DNA of 64,000 nucleotides from an uncultured Acidimicrobiales bacterium (GTDB lineage: Bacteria; Actinomycetota; Acidimicrobiia; Acidimicrobiales; CAWCAL01). The notes under the pieces are model-generated. The model worked only from the letters and a program-made list of their open reading frames with translations, was not told the origin of the DNA and did no database searches. Each line of letters starts with the position of its first letter. The stretch's first letter is position 1. A program made the translations under genes and the position numbers. The stretch covers positions 134,724 through 198,723 of the forward strand of contig CAVOFR010000001.1 in assembly GCA_963695075.1 (NCBI GenBank), given 5' to 3'. Shown piece after piece: positions 6,323-19,050 of this stretch.

Positions 6323-7996
6323 GTGAAATCGTTCCTGCGAAGGGTCGCGCCGGTGACCGAGTGGCTCCCGTCCTACCGGCGCGCCGATCTCCGCCCCGAC
6401 CTCCTCGCCGGCGCGACGGTGGCAGCCGTGCTCGTCCCCCAGGCGATGGCCTACGCACAGATCGCTGGTCTCCCCCCGGAAACGGGTCTGTACGCCGCGA
6501 CCTTGCCGATCGTCCTGTACGCCGTCTTCGGGTCGTCCCGACAGCTGGCGGTGGGTCCCGTTGCGCTCATTTCGCTCATGACGGCGGCCGCGCTCGCCAA
6601 CACCGAGCCAGGGGTCGACCCTCTTGCCGCCGCCGCGGCCCTGGCCCTGCTGGTGGCGGTGGCTCACCTGGCTCTGGGCGGGTTGCGACTCGGCTGGCTC
6701 TCGAACTTCCTCTCCCATGCCGTCCTCGTGGGCTTCACGGCAGCCGCGGCGATCCTCATCGGGGTCAGCCAGGCTCGCCGGCTACTGGGGGTCGACATCG
6801 AACCGAGCGAGCGGTTCGTCGAGTCGGCGACCCGGATCGGCGATCGACTGGGTGAGGTCCACGGCCCGACGCTGGCCGTCGGAGTCACGGCGATCGTCGT
6901 CCTGTTGGCCATCCGGCGGTTGGCGCCGACCCTGCCGGGCGCCCTGGTCGTCGTGGCCGGCGCCATAGGTGTGAGCGAGCTCTTCGACCTCGAGGGGAAG
7001 GGTGTGGCGGTGGTCGGTGACATTCCCGACTCGCTCCCCGGCTTCGGCCTCCCCGATGTCTCGAGCTCGCTGCTCGTCGATCTCGCTCCAGCCGCCGTCG
7101 CGATCACGCTGGTCGGCTTCCTGGAGTCGATCGCCGTAGCCAAGGTGGCCGGTCGGCGGCACGATCACGAGCCCGGGCCCAACCACGAGCTGGTGGCGCT
7201 CGGGATGGCGAACGCAGGCGCGGGCGTGTTCGGCGGTTTCCCGGTCACGGGCAGCTTCTCGCGTACGGCGGTGAGCTCCGAGGCCGGAGCCCGAACGCAG
7301 CTCGCCTCGGTCGTCGCCGCCACTCTCGTCGTCGCCACGATCGCCCTGCTCACGCCGGTACTCTCGTCGCTGCCACTGGCGGTTCTCGCGGCGGTCGTGA
7401 TCGTCGCGGTGATCCGGCTGGTCGACGTGGCCGAGATCCGTCGCATCGCGCGCGTGAAGCCGATCGACATGGTGAGTCTGACCGTGGCGTTCGCCGCGAC
7501 GCTGCTCCTCGGAGTCGTCGTCGGCATCTCGGCCGGCATCGTCGTGTCGCTGCTCGTGGCGCTGATCGAGCTGGCTCGGCCCAGCGTCGTGGTGCTCGGC
7601 CGGCGTGCCGACTCGACGTCGTATCGGAGCGTGAAGCGATTCGACGATGCCGATGAGGTGCCGGGCGTGCGCATCGTCCGGGTCGACGCACCGCTCGTGT
7701 TCGCCAACACGTCGTGGGTAAAGAATGTGCTCGTCCTCGAAGCCCGGACCGCGGCTGACAACGGCGTCCACGTGCTCGTCGTCAACTGTGCCGGCATGAA
7801 TGACGTCGACTCGGGTGGTGTTGCCATCTTCGAGGAAGCGCTCGACGAGATCGAGGCGATCGGTGTGGAACTGCACCTCGTCGACGTCAAGGGCCCGGTG
7901 CGAGAGGTGTTTCGCCGGAGCGGCACCTGGGAGCGACTGGAGGGCCGGCTGCACTACGGCATCCACGAGGCGGTGGAGTCGGTGCTCGGCCACTGA
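6323..7996 (+). CDS. SulP family inorganic anion transporter with STAS domain
   Basis: PQAMAYA, GLY, GSSRQLAVGP, GSFSRT, C-terminal STAS (DVDSGG). Confidence 0.93.
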   Translation: MKSFLRRVAPVTEWLPSYRRADLRPDLLAGATVAAVLVPQAMAYAQIAGLPPETGLYAATLPIVLYAVFGSSRQLAVGPVALISLMTAAALANTEPGVDPLAAAAALALLVAVAHLALGGLRLGWLSNFLSHAVLVGFTAAAAILIGVSQARRLLGVDIEPSERFVESATRIGDRLGEVHGPTLAVGVTAIVVLLAIRRLAPTLPGALVVVAGAIGVSELFDLEGKGVAVVGDIPDSLPGFGLPDVSSSLLVDLAPAAVAITLVGFLESIAVAKVAGRRHDHEPGPNHELVALGMANAGAGVFGGFPVTGSFSRTAVSSEAGARTQLASVVAATLVVATIALLTPVLSSLPLAVLAAVVIVAVIRLVDVAEIRRIARVKPIDMVSLTVAFAATLLLGVVVGISAGIVVSLLVALIELARPSVVVLGRRADSTSYRSVKRFDDADEVPGVRIVRVDAPLVFANTSWVKNVLVLEARTAADNGVHVLVVNCAGMNDVDSGGVAIFEEALDEIEAIGVELHLVDVKGPVREVFRRSGTWERLEGRLHYGIHEAVESVLGH

Positions 7997-8008
7997 CGGC
8001 GTGCCGCG

Positions 8009-8041
8009 TTCAGCTTCTGGTCAGGGGACCCGGAGCATGGT
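8009..8041 (+). promoter_or_regulatory. OmpR-type direct-repeat box and -10 upstream of the PepSY gene
   Basis: TTCAG-N6-GTCAG (11-bp period), then CATGGT 11 nt later. Confidence 0.6.
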
Positions 8042-8079
8042 GGAGGTGAAGAACGCTCGGATCGAACACGGGAGATCTC

Positions 8080-8412
8080 ATGAAGCAGCGTACGAAGTTG
8101 TTCCTCGCCGGTGGAGTGGCCGTAGCCGTGGCCCTCGGAACGGGCGTCGGTGTGGTAGCGGCCGGTTCCGCTGACGACGACGGCACGACAGGACCCATCA
8201 GCGGTGCGGCCTATGACGAGGCGACCGCCGCCGCACTCGCCCACACCGGTGAGGGCCGGGTGACCGGAACCGAGGCCGGCGACGAGCAAGGCGCCTACGA
8301 GGTCGAGGTGACCCTCGATGACGGACGCCAGACCGACGTCCACCTGGACGCGCAGTTCAACGTGATCGGCGCCCATGCCGACGACGAGAGTGAAGCCGGC
8401 GACGCCGACTGA
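8080..8412 (+). CDS. secreted PepSY-domain protein
   Basis: Signal peptide, then AYEVEVTLDDG...DVHLD; adjacent to an OmpR/HK pair. Confidence 0.85.
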   Translation: MKQRTKLFLAGGVAVAVALGTGVGVVAAGSADDDGTTGPISGAAYDEATAAALAHTGEGRVTGTEAGDEQGAYEVEVTLDDGRQTDVHLDAQFNVIGAHADDESEAGDAD

Positions 8413-8430
8413 GGGACACCGCCGAGCCGA

Positions 8431-8474
8431 GTCAGGTCGTGTTCAGCTTCCGTTCAGACTGGATCGAGCATCAT
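8431..8474 (+). promoter_or_regulatory. OmpR-type triple direct repeat and -10 upstream of the response regulator
   Basis: GTCAG-N6-TTCAG-N6-TTCAG, then CATCAT 11 nt later and ATG 7 nt after that. Confidence 0.65.
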
Positions 8475-8481
8475 GGACGCC

Positions 8482-9159
8482 ATGCGGGTGCTCGTGGTCG
8501 AAGACGAGAAGCGACTGGCCGCCGGGCTCAAGAAGGGTCTGGAGGCCGAGGGATTCGCCACCGACATCGCCCTGACCGGGACCGACGGCCTCTGGATGGC
8601 ACACGAACACCCCTACGACGCCGTCGTCCTCGACATCATGCTCCCGGGAATGAACGGCTACAAGGTCTGTGCGAGCCTCAGGGAAGAGGGTGATTGGACT
8701 CCCATCCTGATGCTCACCGCGAAGGATGGTGAACTCGACGAGGCCGAGGCGCTCGACACCGGTGCCGACGACTATCTCACAAAGCCGTTCTCCTTCGTGG
8801 TGCTGGTGGCCCGCCTGCGGGCCCTGATCCGCCGAGGCGCTCGCGAGCGGCCCGCCGTGCTCGAGGTCGGCGACCTCCGGCTCGATCCGGCCGCCCGCCG
8901 GATCTGGCGGGGTGACGACGAGGTCGCGGTCACGGCCCGGGAGTTGTCGTTGATCGAGTACATGCTGAGCCGTCCGGGCGAAGTCGTCTCGAAGCGAGCG
9001 ATCCTCGACCACGTCTGGAACTACGACTTCGACGGAGACCCGAACATCGTCGAGGTCTACATCCGTCGCCTCCGGAACAAGATCGACCGACCCTTCGACC
9101 GAGCTGCCATCGAGACCGTCCGGGGCTCGGGGTACCGCATCGACCCCGACGGCGGATGA
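8482..9159 (+). CDS. OmpR/PhoB family response regulator
   Basis: VVEDE, LDIMLP, LTAK, GADDYLTKPF, VEVYIRRLRNKID, TVRGSGY. Confidence 0.95.
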   Translation: MRVLVVEDEKRLAAGLKKGLEAEGFATDIALTGTDGLWMAHEHPYDAVVLDIMLPGMNGYKVCASLREEGDWTPILMLTAKDGELDEAEALDTGADDYLTKPFSFVVLVARLRALIRRGARERPAVLEVGDLRLDPAARRIWRGDDEVAVTARELSLIEYMLSRPGEVVSKRAILDHVWNYDFDGDPNIVEVYIRRLRNKIDRPFDRAAIETVRGSGYRIDPDGG

Positions 9160-10511
9160 TCCGCCCCGAGCATGGCCGCCCCTGGCGCGCCGGCCTCGGG
9201 ACCGTACGGGTCCGCACGACGACCATCGCCGTGCTGGTCGTCGGTCTGGCGCTCGTCGTGGCATCGGTCGCGTTGCTGGTCGGCGTGCGTCGTTCCGTCG
9301 TCGATCGCGTCAGATCCAACGCCGAGCTACGAGCGGCCGACATCGTCACCGCCATCGACGCCGGTGTGCCGGCGGCTGACCTCGCTCTCGACGAGGGATC
9401 CGACCGCTTCATCCAGATCGTCGGATCCGACGGCGATGTCATCGCCGCGAGCCGAAGCGCCGCCGATGTCCAGTCACTGGCCGACCGGGCCGGGACCGAC
9501 GTGCAGCTCCCCTTCGGCGACGCTGACGATCGGTGGGTGGTTTTCGTCGACCGGCCCGCGACCGGCGACGTCGGCGCCGTGATCGTCGGCCGGGAGCTCG
9601 ACCCGGCACGGGAGACCTCCGGCACGCTGACCCTGCTCCTCGTGATCGTGGTTCCTGCCGTGCTCGCCGTGGTCGGGGTCACGACCTGGCAACTGACCGG
9701 CCGGGCCCTGGCGCCCGTCGACGCCATCCGACAGGAAGCCGACGAGATCAGCGCGACCGAGCTCTACCGGCGACTTCCCGAGCCGCACGGGGCAGACGAG
9801 ATCGCCCGCCTGGCCACCACCATGAACAACATGCTCGACAGGCTCGAACAGAGCCAGACCCGCCAACGTCGGCTCATCTCCGACGCCTCCCACGAGCTGC
9901 GATCCCCGGTCGCCTCCATCCGTCAACACACCGAGGTCGCCCTCACCCACCCCGGAGAAACGTCTCTCGACCAGCTCGCCGAGACCGTCTTCGCCGAGAG
10001 CCAACGGCTCGGCCACCTCGTGGACGATCTCATCCTCCTCGCCCGGGCCGACGAACGATCGCTGCCCGGAGGGCGCACCCCGGTCGACCTCGACGACGTG
10101 ATCTTCGCCCAGGCCGAGCACCTCCCCACGCGCCTCCTGGTCGACCGGACAGGGGTTTCGGCCGGCCAGGTCATCGGCGACCGCCGCCAACTGGAACGCG
10201 TCGTCCGCAACCTCGCCACCAACGCGGCCACCCACGCGACCGCGCGGATCGCCTTCGGACTCGCCGAGAGTGATGGTGACGTCGTCCTCACCGTCGACGA
10301 TGACGGCCCCGGGGTCGCACCCGCGGACCGGGGTCGCATCTTCGAACGGTTCGTCCGACTCGACGAGGCCCGCGACCGCGACCTGGGGGGGAGCGGACTC
10401 GGGCTCGCCATCGTCGACGAGGTCATCCGTGCCCACGACGGCCGCATCGCCGTGTCCGACTCGCCGCTCGGGGGCGCCCGCTTCGAGATCCGACTCCCGG
10501 CCGCTCCCTGA
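9156..10511 (+). CDS. HAMP-domain sensor histidine kinase
   Basis: Two TM helices, DASHELRSP H-box, NLATNA, DDGPG, FERF, GSGLGL; ATGA overlap with the regulator. Confidence 0.95.
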   Translation: MIRPEHGRPWRAGLGTVRVRTTTIAVLVVGLALVVASVALLVGVRRSVVDRVRSNAELRAADIVTAIDAGVPAADLALDEGSDRFIQIVGSDGDVIAASRSAADVQSLADRAGTDVQLPFGDADDRWVVFVDRPATGDVGAVIVGRELDPARETSGTLTLLLVIVVPAVLAVVGVTTWQLTGRALAPVDAIRQEADEISATELYRRLPEPHGADEIARLATTMNNMLDRLEQSQTRQRRLISDASHELRSPVASIRQHTEVALTHPGETSLDQLAETVFAESQRLGHLVDDLILLARADERSLPGGRTPVDLDDVIFAQAEHLPTRLLVDRTGVSAGQVIGDRRQLERVVRNLATNAATHATARIAFGLAESDGDVVLTVDDDGPGVAPADRGRIFERFVRLDEARDRDLGGSGLGLAIVDEVIRAHDGRIAVSDSPLGGARFEIRLPAAP

Positions 10512-10558
10512 CCCAACCCCGCACCGCTCGACCCGGCACCGCTCCAACCCCGCCCCAA

Positions 10559-10593
10559 CCGAAATCTGGTCCGTCACCGTCGGTTTCCGACGG
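10559..10593 (+). repeat. CCGAAATCTGG-family palindromic repeat, copy 3
   Basis: ccgaaatctggtccgtca-ccgtcgg-ttt-ccgacgg. Confidence 0.75.
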
Positions 10594-10625
10594 CTGGGTG
10601 AGGTTGGTAGGAGTACGTTCGGGTC

Positions 10626-11408
10626 ATGGCCTGGGTCGATGGTGTGCTGCTCGACATCGATGGGGTGTTGACGGTCGCATGGGAGGCCATCCCGGGAGCG
10701 TCCGAGGCACTCGTCGAGGTGAGGGACCGGGGGGTCCCCCTCCGATTCGTCACCAACACCACCTCCCGGACCCGGTCCGAGATCTCCGTGCTGCTGCGGA
10801 AGGCGGGCTTCGCGGCCGACGTCGAGGAGATCTTGACGGCGCCGGCCGCGACGGCGGCGTATCTCCGCGCCAACCATCCGGGGGGACGGTGTTTCGTCCT
10901 GACCAGCGGAGACGTGAGTGCCGATCTGATCGGGGTGGAGCTCGTCACCGAGGGCCCGGCCGACGTGGTCGTGATCGGCGGGGCCGGCATGGTGTTCACC
11001 CACGACCAGCTCAACCACGCCTTCCGCCTGCTCCTCGACGGTGCAGGTTTCGTCGCCATGCATCGCAACATCTACTGGCGAACCGCCGACGGGTTGTCCC
11101 TCGACAGCGGCGCCTACGTCATGGCCCTCGAGGCGGCGACCGGCCTCCGGGCGGTGGTGGTCGGCAAGCCGGCCCCGGAGTTCTTCGGCTCGGCGCTCGA
11201 AGCCCTCGGCCTACCGAAGGAGAGGGTCGCCATGGTCGGTGACGACATCGTCAACGACGTTCTCGGCGCCCAGACCGCCGGGCTGCACGGCGTGCTCGTC
11301 CGGACCGGAAAGTACCGCCGGGATGCCGTCGAGTCGGCCGATGGCCGGCCCGAGGTGATCATCGACTCGGTGGCGGACCTCCCCGAGCTCCTCCGCCGGG
11401 GTCCCTAG
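10626..11408 (+). CDS. HAD-IIA family hydrolase (LHPP/HDHD2-like)
   Basis: LLDIDGVL, VTNTT, GKP, MVGDDIVNDV, VRTGKY; TACGTT-N6-ATG. Confidence 0.92.
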   Translation: MAWVDGVLLDIDGVLTVAWEAIPGASEALVEVRDRGVPLRFVTNTTSRTRSEISVLLRKAGFAADVEEILTAPAATAAYLRANHPGGRCFVLTSGDVSADLIGVELVTEGPADVVVIGGAGMVFTHDQLNHAFRLLLDGAGFVAMHRNIYWRTADGLSLDSGAYVMALEAATGLRAVVVGKPAPEFFGSALEALGLPKERVAMVGDDIVNDVLGAQTAGLHGVLVRTGKYRRDAVESADGRPEVIIDSVADLPELLRRGP

Positions 11409-13918: not shown

Positions 13919-14863
13919 TCAGGAGACGCGGAACCGGCTGATCTGGATGTCGCTGGTTCCCAGGTCGCGATAGTTGTCGCCGGCGCGGCCCTTCATGAGG
14001 TCTCGCCAAGGGAACGGTCGGTAGCGGGGAGCGCCGTCGGCCAGCTGGTCGAGCGGGGCGATCACCGCGTCGCGGGCCGGGTTGAAGAAGTACGGGATAC
14101 TGAAGCGGCCGCGCTCGTGCATGGGAACGACCCTGTGGACAGCCGCTCGATACCGGTCGTTGGTCCAGACCTGCATGATGTCGCCGAGGTTCACCACGAT
14201 CGTCCCGGGCCGAGGAGGCACGTCGATCCACTCCGACGAGCGGGTTGCCGTCTGCAGGCCACCGGTGTCGTCCTGGAGTAGGAGCGTGATCACCCCGGGG
14301 TCGGTGTGGTCGCCGAGGGCGTTGTCGCCCAGGTCGGCCAGGCCGATTCGATCCGACGGGGCGACCGGATCGCCGACCGGATAGTGATTGAGCCGCACCG
14401 TGCTGCTCCCACGGTCGCCGACACCGCCCGCCACCGGATCTCCGGAGAGCCCGAGCGCCCGATGGATCATGGCAACCACCTCGGGGGCCAGTGCCGACAT
14501 CGCCTCGAAGTACTCAGCCATTGTCGTCCTGAACCCGGTGAGGCCTTCCGGCCACCGATTGAGCTCGCCTTCGGAAGGCAAGGCGGGATCGATGAAGTCG
14601 AATACCTCTTTGTGGTCCCGCAGGCGTTTCGTGAGCTCGCGGTCGAAGTAGCCGAGCGGGTTCTTCTCGGACCGGACGATGCGTTGACGCACCGATCGGT
14701 CAGCCGAGAAGAAGCGACGGCAATCTGCCCAGGTCCGGTCGATCAGGTCGTCGAGGCCGTGACCGGCGATGAGGAAGAACCCGTGTGCTCGACCGGCCCG
14801 GTCGAGGGCTTCAAGCGACGTGGCCGACGGGTCGCGCAGATCGACCGTGGGGACGAACTCCAT
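13919..14863 (-). CDS. 2-oxoglutarate/Fe(II) oxygenase (IPNS-like)
   Basis: PTVDL, GFF, RLNHYP, HTD...HRV, RFS; TAGCGT-N7-ATG. Confidence 0.9.
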   Translation of the reverse strand: MEFVPTVDLRDPSATSLEALDRAGRAHGFFLIAGHGLDDLIDRTWADCRRFFSADRSVRQRIVRSEKNPLGYFDRELTKRLRDHKEVFDFIDPALPSEGELNRWPEGLTGFRTTMAEYFEAMSALAPEVVAMIHRALGLSGDPVAGGVGDRGSSTVRLNHYPVGDPVAPSDRIGLADLGDNALGDHTDPGVITLLLQDDTGGLQTATRSSEWIDVPPRPGTIVVNLGDIMQVWTNDRYRAAVHRVVPMHERGRFSIPYFFNPARDAVIAPLDQLADGAPRYRPFPWRDLMKGRAGDNYRDLGTSDIQISRFRVS

Positions 14864-14910: not shown

Positions 14911-16722
14911 CTATGGAAGGTGCAGGGCCAGCAGGTGGGCGGGGGCCCCGAAGCCGACGGGAATCACGATGAGGTCTCCCGCGATCGCCGGCCATCCGTT
15001 GATGCCGCCGTCGGCCTGCATCGACCACACCTCGTAGCCCGTCTCGCGGTCGAGAGCGAGGATCAGACCGTTCAGGGTGGAGGTCAAGACCAGGTCGTTG
15101 ACGACGGTCATGGCGCCGACCACGTCCCCATCGATCCGGCGATCCCACAGGACCGTTCCGTCACCCGCATCGACGGCCACGACGTTGCTGGGCATGACCC
15201 CGACATCGGTACCGAACCCGGTGCTGGACTCGTCCGGTGCGTAGGTGATCGGTGCGTTGATCATCGCTACGTAGGCCACTCCCTCGGCGAAGGCGATCGG
15301 CGTGGCCACGCCGCCGAGCCCGCCGGGAAGCACGCTCATCGCTTCGTCGAGCTCGACGACCCCGTCGTTCTCGTGGCTTCCGACGCTCCTCGACCACAGC
15401 TCTTCACCCGATGTGGGATCGAGCCCGAACACGATTCCACCCTTGCCGGCGGTGACGAGCATCGGACGAGCATCGTCACCCGTTCCCACCCGGCCCAGGG
15501 CCGCGTGGACGTGATCGCGGTCGAACAGATCGTGGGGGAACGGTTGATGGCCCCAGGCGAGCTCGCCGGTTTCGCCGTCCAGCGCCACCGTCGAGCTCGT
15601 CCACCGATTGTCGCCGGGACGGCTCGTGGCGTTGGGGAAGCCTTCCGCCCCGGGGAACGGGTAGGGATTCCCGACACCGAAGTAGATCGTGTTGGTGTCG
15701 GGGTCGACGGCCGGCGGGTACCAGGCTCCGCCCCCGCTGTTGACGTCGGGGTGGCCCCACAGGTCGGGTGACTCGATCGTGTCGAACTCCCAGACGACCG
15801 CTCCGGTCGCCTCGTCGAGCGCGGTGATGGTTCCCCGGACCCCGGCCGGGAAGCCCGACGTCGCACCCAGGACCAGCCCGTCGTGGACCGAGGTCTGTAT
15901 GTTCACCTGGCCGCCGTTGGCCGTGATGTCCGTGGCCCAGATCTCCTCACCCGATTCGACGTCATAGGCGGCGATGTACTGCCCCGGTCCGCTCTCGCCG
16001 GTCTTGGTCCCGAACACCTTGCCCCATCCCACGGCGACGCCCGTGGGTCCGAACAGGGACCCCGTCGGACCGGCGGTCCAGAGCCCGCTCCCGGTGTCGC
16101 GGTCGACGGCGTGCACCACGCCGCTGTTGTCCTCGAGGAAGATGTCGTCGCCGAGAATGAGCGGAGTCGTCGACGCAGCACCGAACGTGCCCGAGTTGGG
16201 GAGCTCGTAGCGCCACGCCTCCTCCAAGTCGGCGACCGTGCTGCTGTCGATTGCCGTGTCGAACGTCGATCGGCTGTTGGCGTGGTCCCGGTTAGGCAGG
16301 GGCCAGTCGGCCGCGTGGTCGATGATCTCCGGCGGTGCGCCGTGGGTCGTCCGTTGATCGGCCGTCGGCTGACCGCCCGGATCCGCTGGTGCGGTCGAGT
16401 GCAGGTCGGAGCGGACGAAGGTGACGATGGCGTCGATCGCCTCGGCTGAGAGCTCGTCTCCGAAGCCGCTCATCTGGGAGTTGCCGTCGGAGACAACGAG
16501 GGCCATCTCGTCGAAGGTGTAGTCGTCGTTCGCGGCACCGTCGGCGATCGCCGGACCGACGGCACCGGATCCATCGGCAGCGTGGCAGGTCGAGCAGTTC
16601 TCCGCGAAGAGCCTGGCGCCGTCCGATCTGGTGTCGGACCGCGCGCCCACGCTCTCGCCGCCCGAAGAACAGGCGGCCGAGACGATCAGCAGTCCGGTAG
16701 CCGCCAGCCGACCGATGGTCAT
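14911..16722 (-). CDS. lipoprotein quinohemoprotein: cytochrome c + PQQ beta-propeller (PVA dehydrogenase-like)
   Basis: Lipobox SAAC, CSTCH heme motif, W-containing PQQ propeller repeats, SGGGAW, GVGN, HDLFD. Confidence 0.8.
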   Translation of the reverse strand: MTIGRLAATGLLIVSAACSSGGESVGARSDTRSDGARLFAENCSTCHAADGSGAVGPAIADGAANDDYTFDEMALVVSDGNSQMSGFGDELSAEAIDAIVTFVRSDLHSTAPADPGGQPTADQRTTHGAPPEIIDHAADWPLPNRDHANSRSTFDTAIDSSTVADLEEAWRYELPNSGTFGAASTTPLILGDDIFLEDNSGVVHAVDRDTGSGLWTAGPTGSLFGPTGVAVGWGKVFGTKTGESGPGQYIAAYDVESGEEIWATDITANGGQVNIQTSVHDGLVLGATSGFPAGVRGTITALDEATGAVVWEFDTIESPDLWGHPDVNSGGGAWYPPAVDPDTNTIYFGVGNPYPFPGAEGFPNATSRPGDNRWTSSTVALDGETGELAWGHQPFPHDLFDRDHVHAALGRVGTGDDARPMLVTAGKGGIVFGLDPTSGEELWSRSVGSHENDGVVELDEAMSVLPGGLGGVATPIAFAEGVAYVAMINAPITYAPDESSTGFGTDVGVMPSNVVAVDAGDGTVLWDRRIDGDVVGAMTVVNDLVLTSTLNGLILALDRETGYEVWSMQADGGINGWPAIAGDLIVIPVGFGAPAHLLALHLP

Positions 16723-17678
16723 GCGCCGCCCTCCCGGATGAATGCGTCCGTCGAGCAGTCGAGGGGCGCCGGGGTGAGGCCGAGCTCGACCGGTCCCGAA
16801 GAACCCTTCGGGTGTGAGGCCAGGAGCTCGGCCCAGTACGGCGTGGCGTGGGTGATCCAGATGTGACCGGCGTCCTCGGTGCACGCCACCTGCCGGACGG
16901 CGGGTTGCGCGTCGTAGTACTGCGATGCCAGCGAGGCGTCGGCGACGAACTCGACCGTGACGCAGCCCGGTTCGTCACCGAATTCGGCGCCCATCCGGCC
17001 GTCGGGGCAGCCGGTCCACACGTCGGTGTCGCCTCCCCAGGTGACGACGACGACCATGTCGTCGAGGGGTATGGGGTCGCCGGGCGAGGTGAGGATGAAG
17101 TTGCCTGACCCGACGATGCCCCCGGCGAACAGGTACGAATGGCGCTGCAGGAGGTAGTTGACCATCGTCCCACCGATCGAGATGCCACCGACGAAGATGC
17201 GGTCCCTGTCGATCGGGTGGCGGGCGGCCAGACACTCGATCAGTTCGACGATGAACGTCGCATCCGGATTGGGTTGGGTCTGTTCAGGGGTGCGCAAGGC
17301 GTCCCACGGTTCCCAGATCACGCCGTTGCCGTTCCGCACCGGTGCGACCACCATCCAGCCATCGTCGGGCAGCCGGTCGATGCCGGACTGCTCCATGAAC
17401 GCAACCTCCTCCTGCACGGTTCCGGTGAGGGAGACGAACAGGGGCACGGGCTCCGACGCATCACCGTTGGGCAGGAGGAGGTGGAACGATCGGTCCTGGC
17501 CGGCCGATGCGAAACCCTCGTGGGTTCCCGCCTCGGGCGCGTCCTCGTCGAAACCGTTCGGGCAGTCGGTGGGGTCCCGGGCGGCGCCCTGCTCCGGCCC
17601 GGCGGAGTCGCTGCACGCCGCCGACAGGAGAGCGACCACCATGAGAAGCGGGATGAGGATCCTGCTGCCGTCAGGCAT
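16719..17678 (-). CDS. lipoprotein serine hydrolase (oxidized-PVA hydrolase / PHB depolymerase-like)
   Basis: Lipobox LSAAC, GGISIGGTM, TWGGDTD, AC...GHIW; ATGA overlap with the downstream gene. Confidence 0.75.
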   Translation of the reverse strand: MPDGSRILIPLLMVVALLSAACSDSAGPEQGAARDPTDCPNGFDEDAPEAGTHEGFASAGQDRSFHLLLPNGDASEPVPLFVSLTGTVQEEVAFMEQSGIDRLPDDGWMVVAPVRNGNGVIWEPWDALRTPEQTQPNPDATFIVELIECLAARHPIDRDRIFVGGISIGGTMVNYLLQRHSYLFAGGIVGSGNFILTSPGDPIPLDDMVVVVTWGGDTDVWTGCPDGRMGAEFGDEPGCVTVEFVADASLASQYYDAQPAVRQVACTEDAGHIWITHATPYWAELLASHPKGSSGPVELGLTPAPLDCSTDAFIREGGA

Positions 17679-19050
17679 CGATCGGCTCGAAGCGGGCTCC
17701 GAAATGGCGAAGGGGCCGGGGCGGGCTGGTGATGCGGTAGCCACCGAGCTCGTCCGCACGCTCGGCCACCTCGAGGCAGACCTCGATGACGTAGTCGATG
17801 TGGCTCTGCGTGTACGTGCGGCGAGGGACCGCGAGTCTGACGAGCTCCATCGTCGCGGGTTGTTCGGTTCCGTCGGGCTGGAGCCCGAACATGACCGAGC
17901 CGATCTCACATCCCCGGACACCACCTGCCTCGTACAGCGCCACGGCAAGGGAATGACCGGGATACTCGAGTGGCGGGATGTGGGAGAGCAGGGAGCCGGC
18001 ATCGATGTAGACGGCATGCCCGCCGATCGGCTGCACGACCGGGATCCCCGCATCGGCCAGGGCATTGCCGAGGTAGGCCGTCGAGCGGATGCGGTAGCGG
18101 AGGTAGTCATGGGACACGGCTTCGCGCAGGCCTTGGGCGAGAGCATCGAGATCGCGGCCGGCCAACCCGCCATAGGTCGGGAATCCCTCGGCCAGGATCA
18201 GCAACGTACGGCATTGCTCGGCCAGCGCTTCATCGCGCATCGCCAGCCAGCCGCCGATGTTGCCGAGCGGGTCCTTCTTCGCGCTCATCGTCATGCCGTC
18301 GGCCAAGGCGGCGATCTCTCGAACGATGTCGCGCACCTCGCGGTCGCCCTGTCCGGCCTCACGTTCTCGGATGAGCCAGGCGTTCTCCGCGAATCGGCAC
18401 ACGTCGAGGAACAGGGGGACGCCGTGGTCGTCGCAGACCTCGCGCACCGCCCGGAGGTTCCCGAGTGAGACGGGCTGGCCGCCCCCGGAGTTGTTCGTGA
18501 TCGTGACGAAGACGACGGGGACGGTCTCGGGGCCGTGCTCGGCCAACAGGCGGGCCAGTCCGTCGACATCCATGTTTCCCTTGAAGGGATGACGCGACGC
18601 GGGGTCGCGACCTTCGGGTATCACCAGGTCCACCGCTGTCGCCCCGGTGTACTCCACGTTGGCGCGCGTCGTGTCGAAGTGCGTGTTGTTCGGAACGATC
18701 TTGCCCTCGCCCCCGATCGCCGTGAACAGGATCTTCTCAGCGGCCCGTCCCTGGTGGGTCGGGATCACGTGCTCGAACGGGAACAGGTCCTGAACGCTCT
18801 CGAGGAATCGGAACCACGAGGGCGAGCCGGCGTAGCTCTCGTCGCCGCGCTGGATCGCGGCCCACTGATCCCGGGACATCGCGCCCGTGCCCGAGTCGGT
18901 CAGCAGGTCGATGAGTACATCCTCGGCCCTGAGCGAAAACAGGTTGTGGCCGGCCTCGGCCAGCGCGGCTCGCCGATGATCCGGCGTGGTCATGACCAGC
19001 GGCTCGACCGAGTGGATGCGGAACGGCTCGATGATCGTCCGGAAGGGCAT
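17671..19050 (-). CDS. tnaA: tryptophanase
   Basis: EPFRI, IDLLTDSGT, HQGRAAE, HFDTT, SAKKD (PLP Lys), YGGL; EIG and LRHF favour tryptophanase over tyrosine phenol-lyase. Confidence 0.85.
   Translation of the reverse strand: MPFRTIIEPFRIHSVEPLVMTTPDHRRAALAEAGHNLFSLRAEDVLIDLLTDSGTGAMSRDQWAAIQRGDESYAGSPSWFRFLESVQDLFPFEHVIPTHQGRAAEKILFTAIGGEGKIVPNNTHFDTTRANVEYTGATAVDLVIPEGRDPASRHPFKGNMDVDGLARLLAEHGPETVPVVFVTITNNSGGGQPVSLGNLRAVREVCDDHGVPLFLDVCRFAENAWLIREREAGQGDREVRDIVREIAALADGMTMSAKKDPLGNIGGWLAMRDEALAEQCRTLLILAEGFPTYGGLAGRDLDALAQGLREAVSHDYLRYRIRSTAYLGNALADAGIPVVQPIGGHAVYIDAGSLLSHIPPLEYPGHSLAVALYEAGGVRGCEIGSVMFGLQPDGTEQPATMELVRLAVPRRTYTQSHIDYVIEVCLEVAERADELGGYRITSPPRPLRHFGARFEPIDA

Follow-up and report, generated by a model that had tools for sequence, protein, structure and literature searches.

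The window analyzed here, a 64,000-nucleotide stretch of contig CAVOFR010000001.1 from an uncultured Acidimicrobiales bacterium (class Acidimicrobiia; assembly GCA_963695075.1; source genome 4.65 Mb, 96% complete), contains on its reverse strand a gene for a hydrolase related to the oxidized polyvinyl alcohol (PVA) hydrolase OPH, followed by a gene for a cytochrome c joined to a quinoprotein-fold propeller. The two proteins are referred to as P0001 and P0002, respectively (Table 1). An initial sequence-only reading had described the pair as overlapping genes for two lipoproteins resembling OPH and the PVA dehydrogenase PVADH, and its account of the locus was borne out: the genes overlap by an ATGA, the motifs GGISIGGTM, TWGGDTD, and VAC...GHIW are all present in the 319-aa hydrolase frame, and both a cytochrome c domain with the heme motif CSTCH and a pyrroloquinoline quinone (PQQ)-type propeller were found in the second frame. 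The GC content at third codon positions of P0001 (0.87) and P0002 (0.86) equals that of the neighboring genes (0.83–0.90), so both genes look real and long resident. Acidimicrobiia hold the closest named relatives of each protein, which gives indirect support to the actinobacterial origin named in the sequence-only reading.

Table 1 Features of the hydrolase–propeller gene pair, in positions of the window
Feature	Coordinates	Strand	Remarks
OPH-family alpha/beta hydrolase, predicted lipoprotein (P0001), 319 aa	16719..17678	-	ATG 17678, TGA 16719
Signal peptide and lipobox of P0001, Cys22	17613..17678	-	Cys in 45/49 homologues, 4 gaps
Ser167, predicted nucleophile	17178..17180	-	49/49 homologues; aligns with the Ser mutated in PDB entries titled pOPH S172A/S172C
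Asp219 of WGGDTD, predicted triad acid (OPH: WGGEKD)	17022..17024	-	49/49 homologues
His272 of GHIW, predicted triad base (OPH: GHMW/GHRW)	16863..16865	-	48/49 homologues
ATGA overlap, P0001 stop/P0002 start	16719..16722	-	
Cytochrome c + eight-bladed quinoprotein-fold propeller, predicted lipoprotein (P0002), 603 aa	14911..16722	-	ATG 16722, TAG 14911
Signal peptide and lipobox of P0002, Cys18	16669..16722	-	Cys in 109/116 homologues
Class I cytochrome c domain, N-terminal	16408..16626	-	CSTCH (residues 43–47; 16582–16596) and Met84
Propeller domain, residues 127–603	14914..16344	-	Z 40.2, root-mean-square deviation 2.5, 458 residues aligned to XoxF 6DAM
Asp401-Arg-Asp403	15514..15522	-	Catalytic-Asp position of quinoprotein dehydrogenases and extra XoxF-type Asp position; 116/116 and 115/116

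The lipoboxes proposed for both proteins were assessed with a PROSITE-type pattern in the form that we take to be standard. The pattern fit at Cys22 of P0001 and Cys18 of P0002, as well as in 41 of 49 hydrolase homologues and 103 of 116 propeller homologues, compared to a rough background of 20 among 601 long open-reading frames of the same genome. It fit neither OPH nor PVADH of Sphingopyxis 113P3; OPH has a signal-peptidase-I type leader where P0001 has a lipobox. Judged from these N-termini, lipid anchoring appears to be the norm of both families, including their relatives in Binatia and Myxococcota, and not an actinobacterial peculiarity. Genes for Lgt and for cytochrome c assembly were found in the source genome.

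P0001 is a true member of the OPH family by sequence, fold, and phylogeny, which upholds the resemblance first proposed. A PDB sequence search returned oxidized PVA hydrolases as the top four matches (3WL6 at E 3e-30, the remainder to 8e-28), followed by a polyhydroxybutyrate (PHB) depolymerase at E 1e-5, and P0001 aligned over its whole length with 30% identity to the OPH encoded on the Sphingopyxis 113P3 plasmid. In a fold search, the structure model of P0001 (pLDDT 89.5) retrieved eight OPH chains first, with TMq 0.72–0.76, and the next family was again PHB depolymerase, at 0.51. In a tree of 48 rows, with six PHB-depolymerase-like proteins and one paralogue as the outgroup, P0001 was placed in an Acidimicrobiia-type branch (15 rows, support 99/93) nested in a 37-row clade (100/100) that contains the 113P3 OPH. 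P0001 shares with OPH (PvaB; EC 3.7.1.7; PDB 3WL6, 3WLA) the motifs TGT/SV, WGGxxDxW, and GHxW, the conserved Cys pattern, and the upstream position beside a propeller gene. Its Ser-Asp-His triad with a GxSxG lipase box (S167, D219, H272) aligned to that of OPH and is near invariant, the roles of Asp219, His272, and Trp221 being those that we presume them to have. Trp221 and TGTV are present in all 49 aligned homologues, among which TGTV, WGGxxDxW, and GHxW are nearly invariant. TGTV and the Trp and Cys positions of what we take to be the OPH lid and double oxyanion hole are retained in this comparison, limited to sequence, but two OPH insertions of ~25–28 residues each are absent. Identity as a PHB depolymerase (type 1 catalytic domain) was rejected, with NCBIfam scores of 75 and 44 bits against cut-offs of 150 and 108 and a position outside the PHB-depolymerase-like group in the tree; the Pfam model Esterase_PHB matched P0001 above its cut-off. 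OPH is described as splitting β-diketone C–C bonds through a serine triad in PMC12909831 and PMC11644497.

The resemblance of the second protein to PVADH (PvaA of Sphingopyxis 113P3 and Pseudomonas VM15C) held for the domain order, with an N-terminal cytochrome c followed by a quinoprotein propeller, and for the position of the gene directly after an OPH-family gene, but not for orthology. P0002 is 23% identical to 113P3 PVADH, whereas PVADH-clade genes adjoining sphingomonad OPHs are 70–85% identical to that PVADH; P0002 also lacks the Glu and the Cys-Cys motif of PVADH and carries two motifs, RPGDNxW and HDxFD, that belong to the alcohol dehydrogenase side. In profile comparisons, the P0002 family matched seven classical alcohol/methanol dehydrogenases at E 1.3e-60 and eleven PVADH-clade proteins at 1.5e-38. 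The P0002 type formed its own 100/100 clade in every propeller tree and, with four BamB rows as the outgroup, was sister to the classical alcohol, methanol, and glucose dehydrogenases (97/93, 95/95). The approximately unbiased (AU) test rejected monophyly with PVADH (p 0.005). An outgroup-free, midpoint-rooted tree had placed the P0002 clade and PVADH on one side, a grouping that the BamB outgroup dissolved. These trees were built under LG+G4, without a mixture model and with a small reference set, so the separation from PVADH is firmer than their deep branching order. By these comparisons, P0002 belongs to a separate, uncharacterized quinoprotein-fold lineage and is not a PVADH.

The type I/II quinoprotein and quinohemoprotein alcohol dehydrogenases MxaF, XoxF, PedH, and ADH-IIB are the nearest matches of P0002 both by profile (E 1e-60) and by fold (Z 37–40). 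P0002 is 22–26% identical to them and differs from them in carrying its heme domain at the N-terminus and not the C-terminus and in having neither the Glu ligand nor the vicinal disulfide. A BamB identity was rejected, given 89 bits against an NCBIfam cut-off of 285 and Z 33–34 compared to 37–40 for the dehydrogenases; thus neither of the groupings that the sequence-only reading had named as contrary to it, with generic PHB depolymerases or with BamB-like propellers, was seen. The NCBIfam alcohol dehydrogenase model scored 154 bits against a cut-off of 480, followed by the model for acido-empty-quinoprotein group A (TIGR04528), a quinoprotein fold likewise found in genomes without detectable PQQ synthesis, of which P0002 is not a member (145 bits, cut-off 650). 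An ESM Atlas search returned generic PQQ/BamB clusters only. The P0002-type family comprises over 1,000 matches at E 1e-30 or better, and the heme domain is optional in it, unlike in PVADH, as the CxxCH motif is present in 63 of 116 homologues and absent in the remainder.

The cofactor face of the propeller was mapped by alignment to known dehydrogenases, with counts taken over the 116 homologues. Trp334, Asp401, and Lys427 are retained in all 116, and Asn352 and Ser289 in 104 each, matching the Trp, Asn, Asp, and Lys/Arg of the MxaF/XoxF/PedH/ADH-IIB enzymes. A second acid, Asp403, occupies the position of the extra lanthanide Asp that XoxF-type enzymes carry, according to PMC10875860. Asn328, His450, Asn452, Thr474, Asn489, and Asn575 form a further invariant set in the homologues. 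Asn352, Asp401, and Asp403 might serve as the metal ligands of a remodeled site, replacing a missing Glu.

The linkage of the two genes was surveyed in a class sample of 401 genomes, with 3–5 candidates scored in each. Two of these genomes (the source genome and G217) gave the hydrolase and 25 gave the propeller, and in both hydrolase genomes the two genes lie side by side, in G217 in the reverse order. The pair is also adjacent in locus L037 and separated by one gene in L006; no propeller was found near the hydrolase in L004, L005, L007, L008 (where the flank is short), or L036, and a propeller is present in four of the five genomes behind L004–L008, in one of them in broken pieces. Five further hydrolase/propeller pairs are suggested by database records that share a source and have contigs of equal length. 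The hydrolase and propeller trees match in three subgroups, the P0001/P0002 pair itself being the exception, and both genes are deeply and roughly in parallel diverged among their relatives. In a second class, centered on genome G408, each gene was present in 8 of 121 genomes and both, unlinked, in 5, where 0.5 would be expected (hypergeometric p = 1.5e-5, or 1.4e-4 without the center genome; both values make the association look stronger than it is, as kin are not independent and the carriers are all large genomes). Functional coupling of hydrolase and propeller is well supported.

The association extends to the OPH family at large. A quinoprotein-fold gene lies within 1.5 kb in 20 of 69 OPH-family loci, several of which are near copies, and in 15 of the 36 loci that have 2.5 kb of flank on both sides. 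These partners belong to four separate lineages, namely PVADH with its sister group, the L019 group, the L033/L034 group inside the classical enzymes, and the P0002 type. Among 21 long matches from the best 150 of a profile search, three proteins (P0193, P0213, and P0227) are fusions in which an OPH domain with intact motifs is joined to an L019-type propeller. Such repeated recruitment of differing alcohol-oxidizing folds by a diketone hydrolase is a prediction of a two-step oxidize-and-cleave route. Two of the three fusions also carry CBM96 and fibronectin modules, and an apparent fourth fusion (L032:3-1553) is interrupted by a contig end.

Given these observations, we lean, by a little more than an even chance, toward a reading in which the heme-propeller lipoprotein oxidizes a 1,3-diol or β-hydroxyketone at the cell surface using scavenged PQQ, and the OPH lipoprotein then hydrolyzes the β-diketone. 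This reading starts from the overlap, the lipobox motifs, the OPH fold with its triad residues, the quinoprotein fold with its heme c motif, and the repeated linkage, co-occurrence, and fusion, from which we infer a cofactor, a substrate, and an order of reactions. Both proteins, as predicted membrane-anchored lipoproteins, would work in sequence outside the cell. The heme-propeller protein would act on the secondary alcohols, converting a natural 1,3-diol or polyol into a β-diketone by oxidation, and the hydrolase would split this product at the C–C bond, yielding an acid and a methyl ketone, while electrons would pass from the propeller cofactor, presumably PQQ acquired from the environment, to the heme and on to the respiratory chain. 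The pair probably acts on a natural substrate (a polyketide-type polyol, a wax diol or diketone, or sporopollenin-like units) and not on PVA, since codon usage is native and both genes are deeply diverged among their relatives. PVA units have been reported in sporopollenin, as stated in PMC8155372, citing Li et al. 2019, which makes it one candidate substrate. Of the oxidation and cleavage module initially proposed for PVA or a natural polyol, the coupling of the two functions has therefore stood, but PVA itself has become an unlikely substrate.

Several results weigh against this reading. The initial suggestion to look for pqq genes elsewhere in the genome yielded none: pqqB and pqqC had no match in the source genome, a pqqE-like match was MoaA and leaves no pqqE, and a PqqD-like match (C3:370960; L002:1471-1752) was an isolated domain by an aminotransferase-like frame, with no pqq operon. 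Across the 401 class genomes, among them the 25 with a P0002-type propeller, pqqC never exceeded the cut-off (weak matches in 12), although the same search detected a known pqq plasmid (W01) as a positive control. Missing PQQ synthesis does not exclude uptake and use, because a Sphingopyxis genome (G407) with an OPH and PVADH-clade pair has no pqqC match either, and Pseudomonas VM15C is said to have needed a partner strain for PQQ. At the cofactor face, the metal-ligand Glu is present in 0 of 116 homologues at the aligned column (11 have an acid elsewhere in the loop), the vicinal Cys pair, which is invariant in 11 PVADH-clade rows, is absent from P0002, and the equivalents of Glu55 and Arg109, in what we take to be methanol dehydrogenase numbering, are missing, as is that of Thr241. 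PQQ binding by P0002 would thus not be assured. The specificity of P0001 may likewise differ from that of OPH, because the two insertions are absent. Linkage is also incomplete. The hydrolase was missing in 23 of the 25 propeller-bearing class genomes, so the propeller has uses without it; a P0002-type propeller (at E 1e-100) was missing in 14 of 21 OPH-family genomes outside the Acidimicrobiia-type clade; and no propeller gene was found within 1.5 kb in 49 of 69 OPH-family loci (21 of the 36 fully flanked). Finally, the neighbor genes of the pair are not conserved and name no substrate.

The order of the reactions could be the reverse, with P0001 acting as an esterase on a secreted or cell-wall ester and the propeller oxidizing the freed alcohol. 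Linkage and fusion are compatible with either order, and the Esterase_PHB match, the weak scores against PHB depolymerase models, the missing OPH insertions, and a PDB entry of pOPH S172A with p-nitrophenyl butyrate (by its title) all fit an esterase. These NCBIfam scores are, however, far under their cut-offs, the OPH-specific motifs are nearly invariant, and the sole characterized members of the clade are β-diketone hydrolases, making hydrolysis as the first step unlikely. The missing Glu, Cys-Cys, and two PQQ-carboxylate contacts, together with the new invariant residue set, raise instead the question of an 'empty', PQQ-free propeller, such as a retro-aldolase, a hydrolase, a binding protein, or a carrier of another cofactor, that feeds or assists the hydrolase. 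The lack of pqqC in the 25 propeller-bearing class genomes and the acido-empty-quinoprotein model in second place are consistent with this, as is the presence among the fold matches of P0002 of tetrathionate hydrolase, which is a cofactor-free use of the quinoprotein fold. An apo-PVADH with aldolase activity is also described in PMC11644497. A c-type heme domain in more than half of the homologues points to redox work, however, and with the cofactor-face Trp, Asn, Asp, and Lys retained and the fold nearest to dehydrogenases, we consider an empty propeller quite unlikely.

A functioning operon for PVA degradation, like those of Sphingopyxis 113P3 and Pseudomonas VM15C, would account for the gene order and overlap, which are those of the 113P3 oph-pvadh pair, for the shared domain order of the dehydrogenases, and for the intact OPH triad. 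The dehydrogenases of genuine operons are nevertheless 70–85% identical to one another, far from the value for P0002, whose monophyly with PVADH was rejected, and an old natural role is suggested by the native codon usage and by how deeply, and roughly in parallel, the two genes have diverged among relatives. We therefore regard such an operon as improbable, although a side activity on PVA is possible. The remaining explanation, an accidental adjacency in a shuffled genome of two proteins with unrelated jobs, draws on the unrelated and non-conserved flanking genes (a tryptophanase overlapping upstream and a 2-oxoglutarate (2OG)-Fe(II) oxygenase downstream) and on the fact that most relatives of either gene are not adjacent to the other. 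It is largely refuted, and in our estimate has very little chance of being right, since adjacency recurs in both orders, co-occurrence holds for unlinked genes, and fusions exist.

A broader form of the favored oxidize-and-cleave reading, which as a whole we put forward tentatively and expect to be wrong in at least some part, is that the degradation of PVA branched off recently from a much older and widespread system that oxidizes and cleaves natural skipped 1,3-polyols, such as polyketide polyols or the PVA-like units of sporopollenin. The OPH family would have recruited at least four unrelated quinoprotein-fold partners for this, and P0002 would represent a new dehydrogenase class with a rebuilt, Glu-less, possibly lanthanide-binding site. 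On the cell surface of Acidimicrobiia, Binatia, and Myxococcota, this class would run on PQQ scavenged from outside or on a different cofactor.

A literature search over titles, the openings of abstracts, and passages of PMC8708025, PMC13461043, and PMC12960351, in a collection with few subscription journals, gave no description of the pair, of OPH homologues in Acidimicrobiia, or of bacterial attack on sporopollenin by such enzymes. For actinobacteria, PVADH genes are known at the level of annotation (PMC8708025), and a survey counts matches to PVA and polyethylene (PE) degradation enzymes in Actinomycetota by hidden Markov model (HMM; PMC13461043). The natural role of PVA-degrading enzymes was not established in the searchable literature. 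The pair joins OPH chemistry to a dehydrogenase from a lineage distinct from PVADH, its hosts have no evident link to PVA, and it hints at the origin of bacterial plastic-degrading chemistry. It also provides a short list of enzymes, single-chain fusions included, for tracing the natural substrate, and a first functional handle on a large uncharacterized quinoprotein-fold family in genomes that seemingly do not make PQQ. For plastic-degradation surveys, it is a warning that a PVADH annotation of such genes is wrong at the level of orthology.

Upstream of the pair, a tryptophanase/tyrosine phenol-lyase family gene (17671–19050, reverse strand; NF009709, 662 bits) is probably co-transcribed with it, because its 3′ end runs 8 bases into the hydrolase gene. 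Downstream, a 2OG-Fe(II) oxygenase gene with a DIOX_N domain (13919–14863, reverse strand) begins 47 bases past the propeller gene. Neither was retained as part of the module: the tryptophanase had no match in 168 other loci, and no 2OG oxygenase adjoins any OPH gene in them, many of these loci being short. A promoter and terminator scan gave a single weak site, at chance level. In G217, the pair is immediately preceded, on its own strand, by a limonene-1,2-epoxide hydrolase-like gene (L106:10664-11128).

Three further quinoprotein-fold genes were found on contig C7 of the source genome (L107:7635-9236, L108:6657-8381, and L109:5855-8815), of which one is a heme-less paralogue of the P0002 type with 47% identity, one is a propeller with a C-terminal cytochrome c related to the L019/fusion group, and one is a 987-aa propeller fusion. 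Identical tblastn matches at C4:16882-17493 and C7:1746820-1747431 suggest a duplicated assembly segment. Among the other OPH-family loci, a Phenylobacterium locus encodes a homologue of the acetylacetone-cleaving dioxygenase Dke1 (L031:7991-8434, E 3e-9) and also holds an OPH, a PVADH-like gene, an SDR, and a TonB receptor; the presence of this homologue counts in favor of the oxidize-and-cleave reading. In an Acetobacteraceae metagenome-assembled genome, a single frame directly before the OPH gene (L033:2759-5992) combines an MFS transporter, a cytochrome c, and a PQQ dehydrogenase, and may be a genuine fusion or a two-gene read-through. Unrelated hosts repeatedly have a PhyH-family dioxygenase gene in the vicinity of an OPH-family gene (L001, L012, L033, and L056), often with an SDR, and in L056 a β-lactamase-fold domain fused to a glucose-dehydrogenase-type PQQ propeller (7594-10887) is encoded downstream of an OPH/PVADH-like pair.

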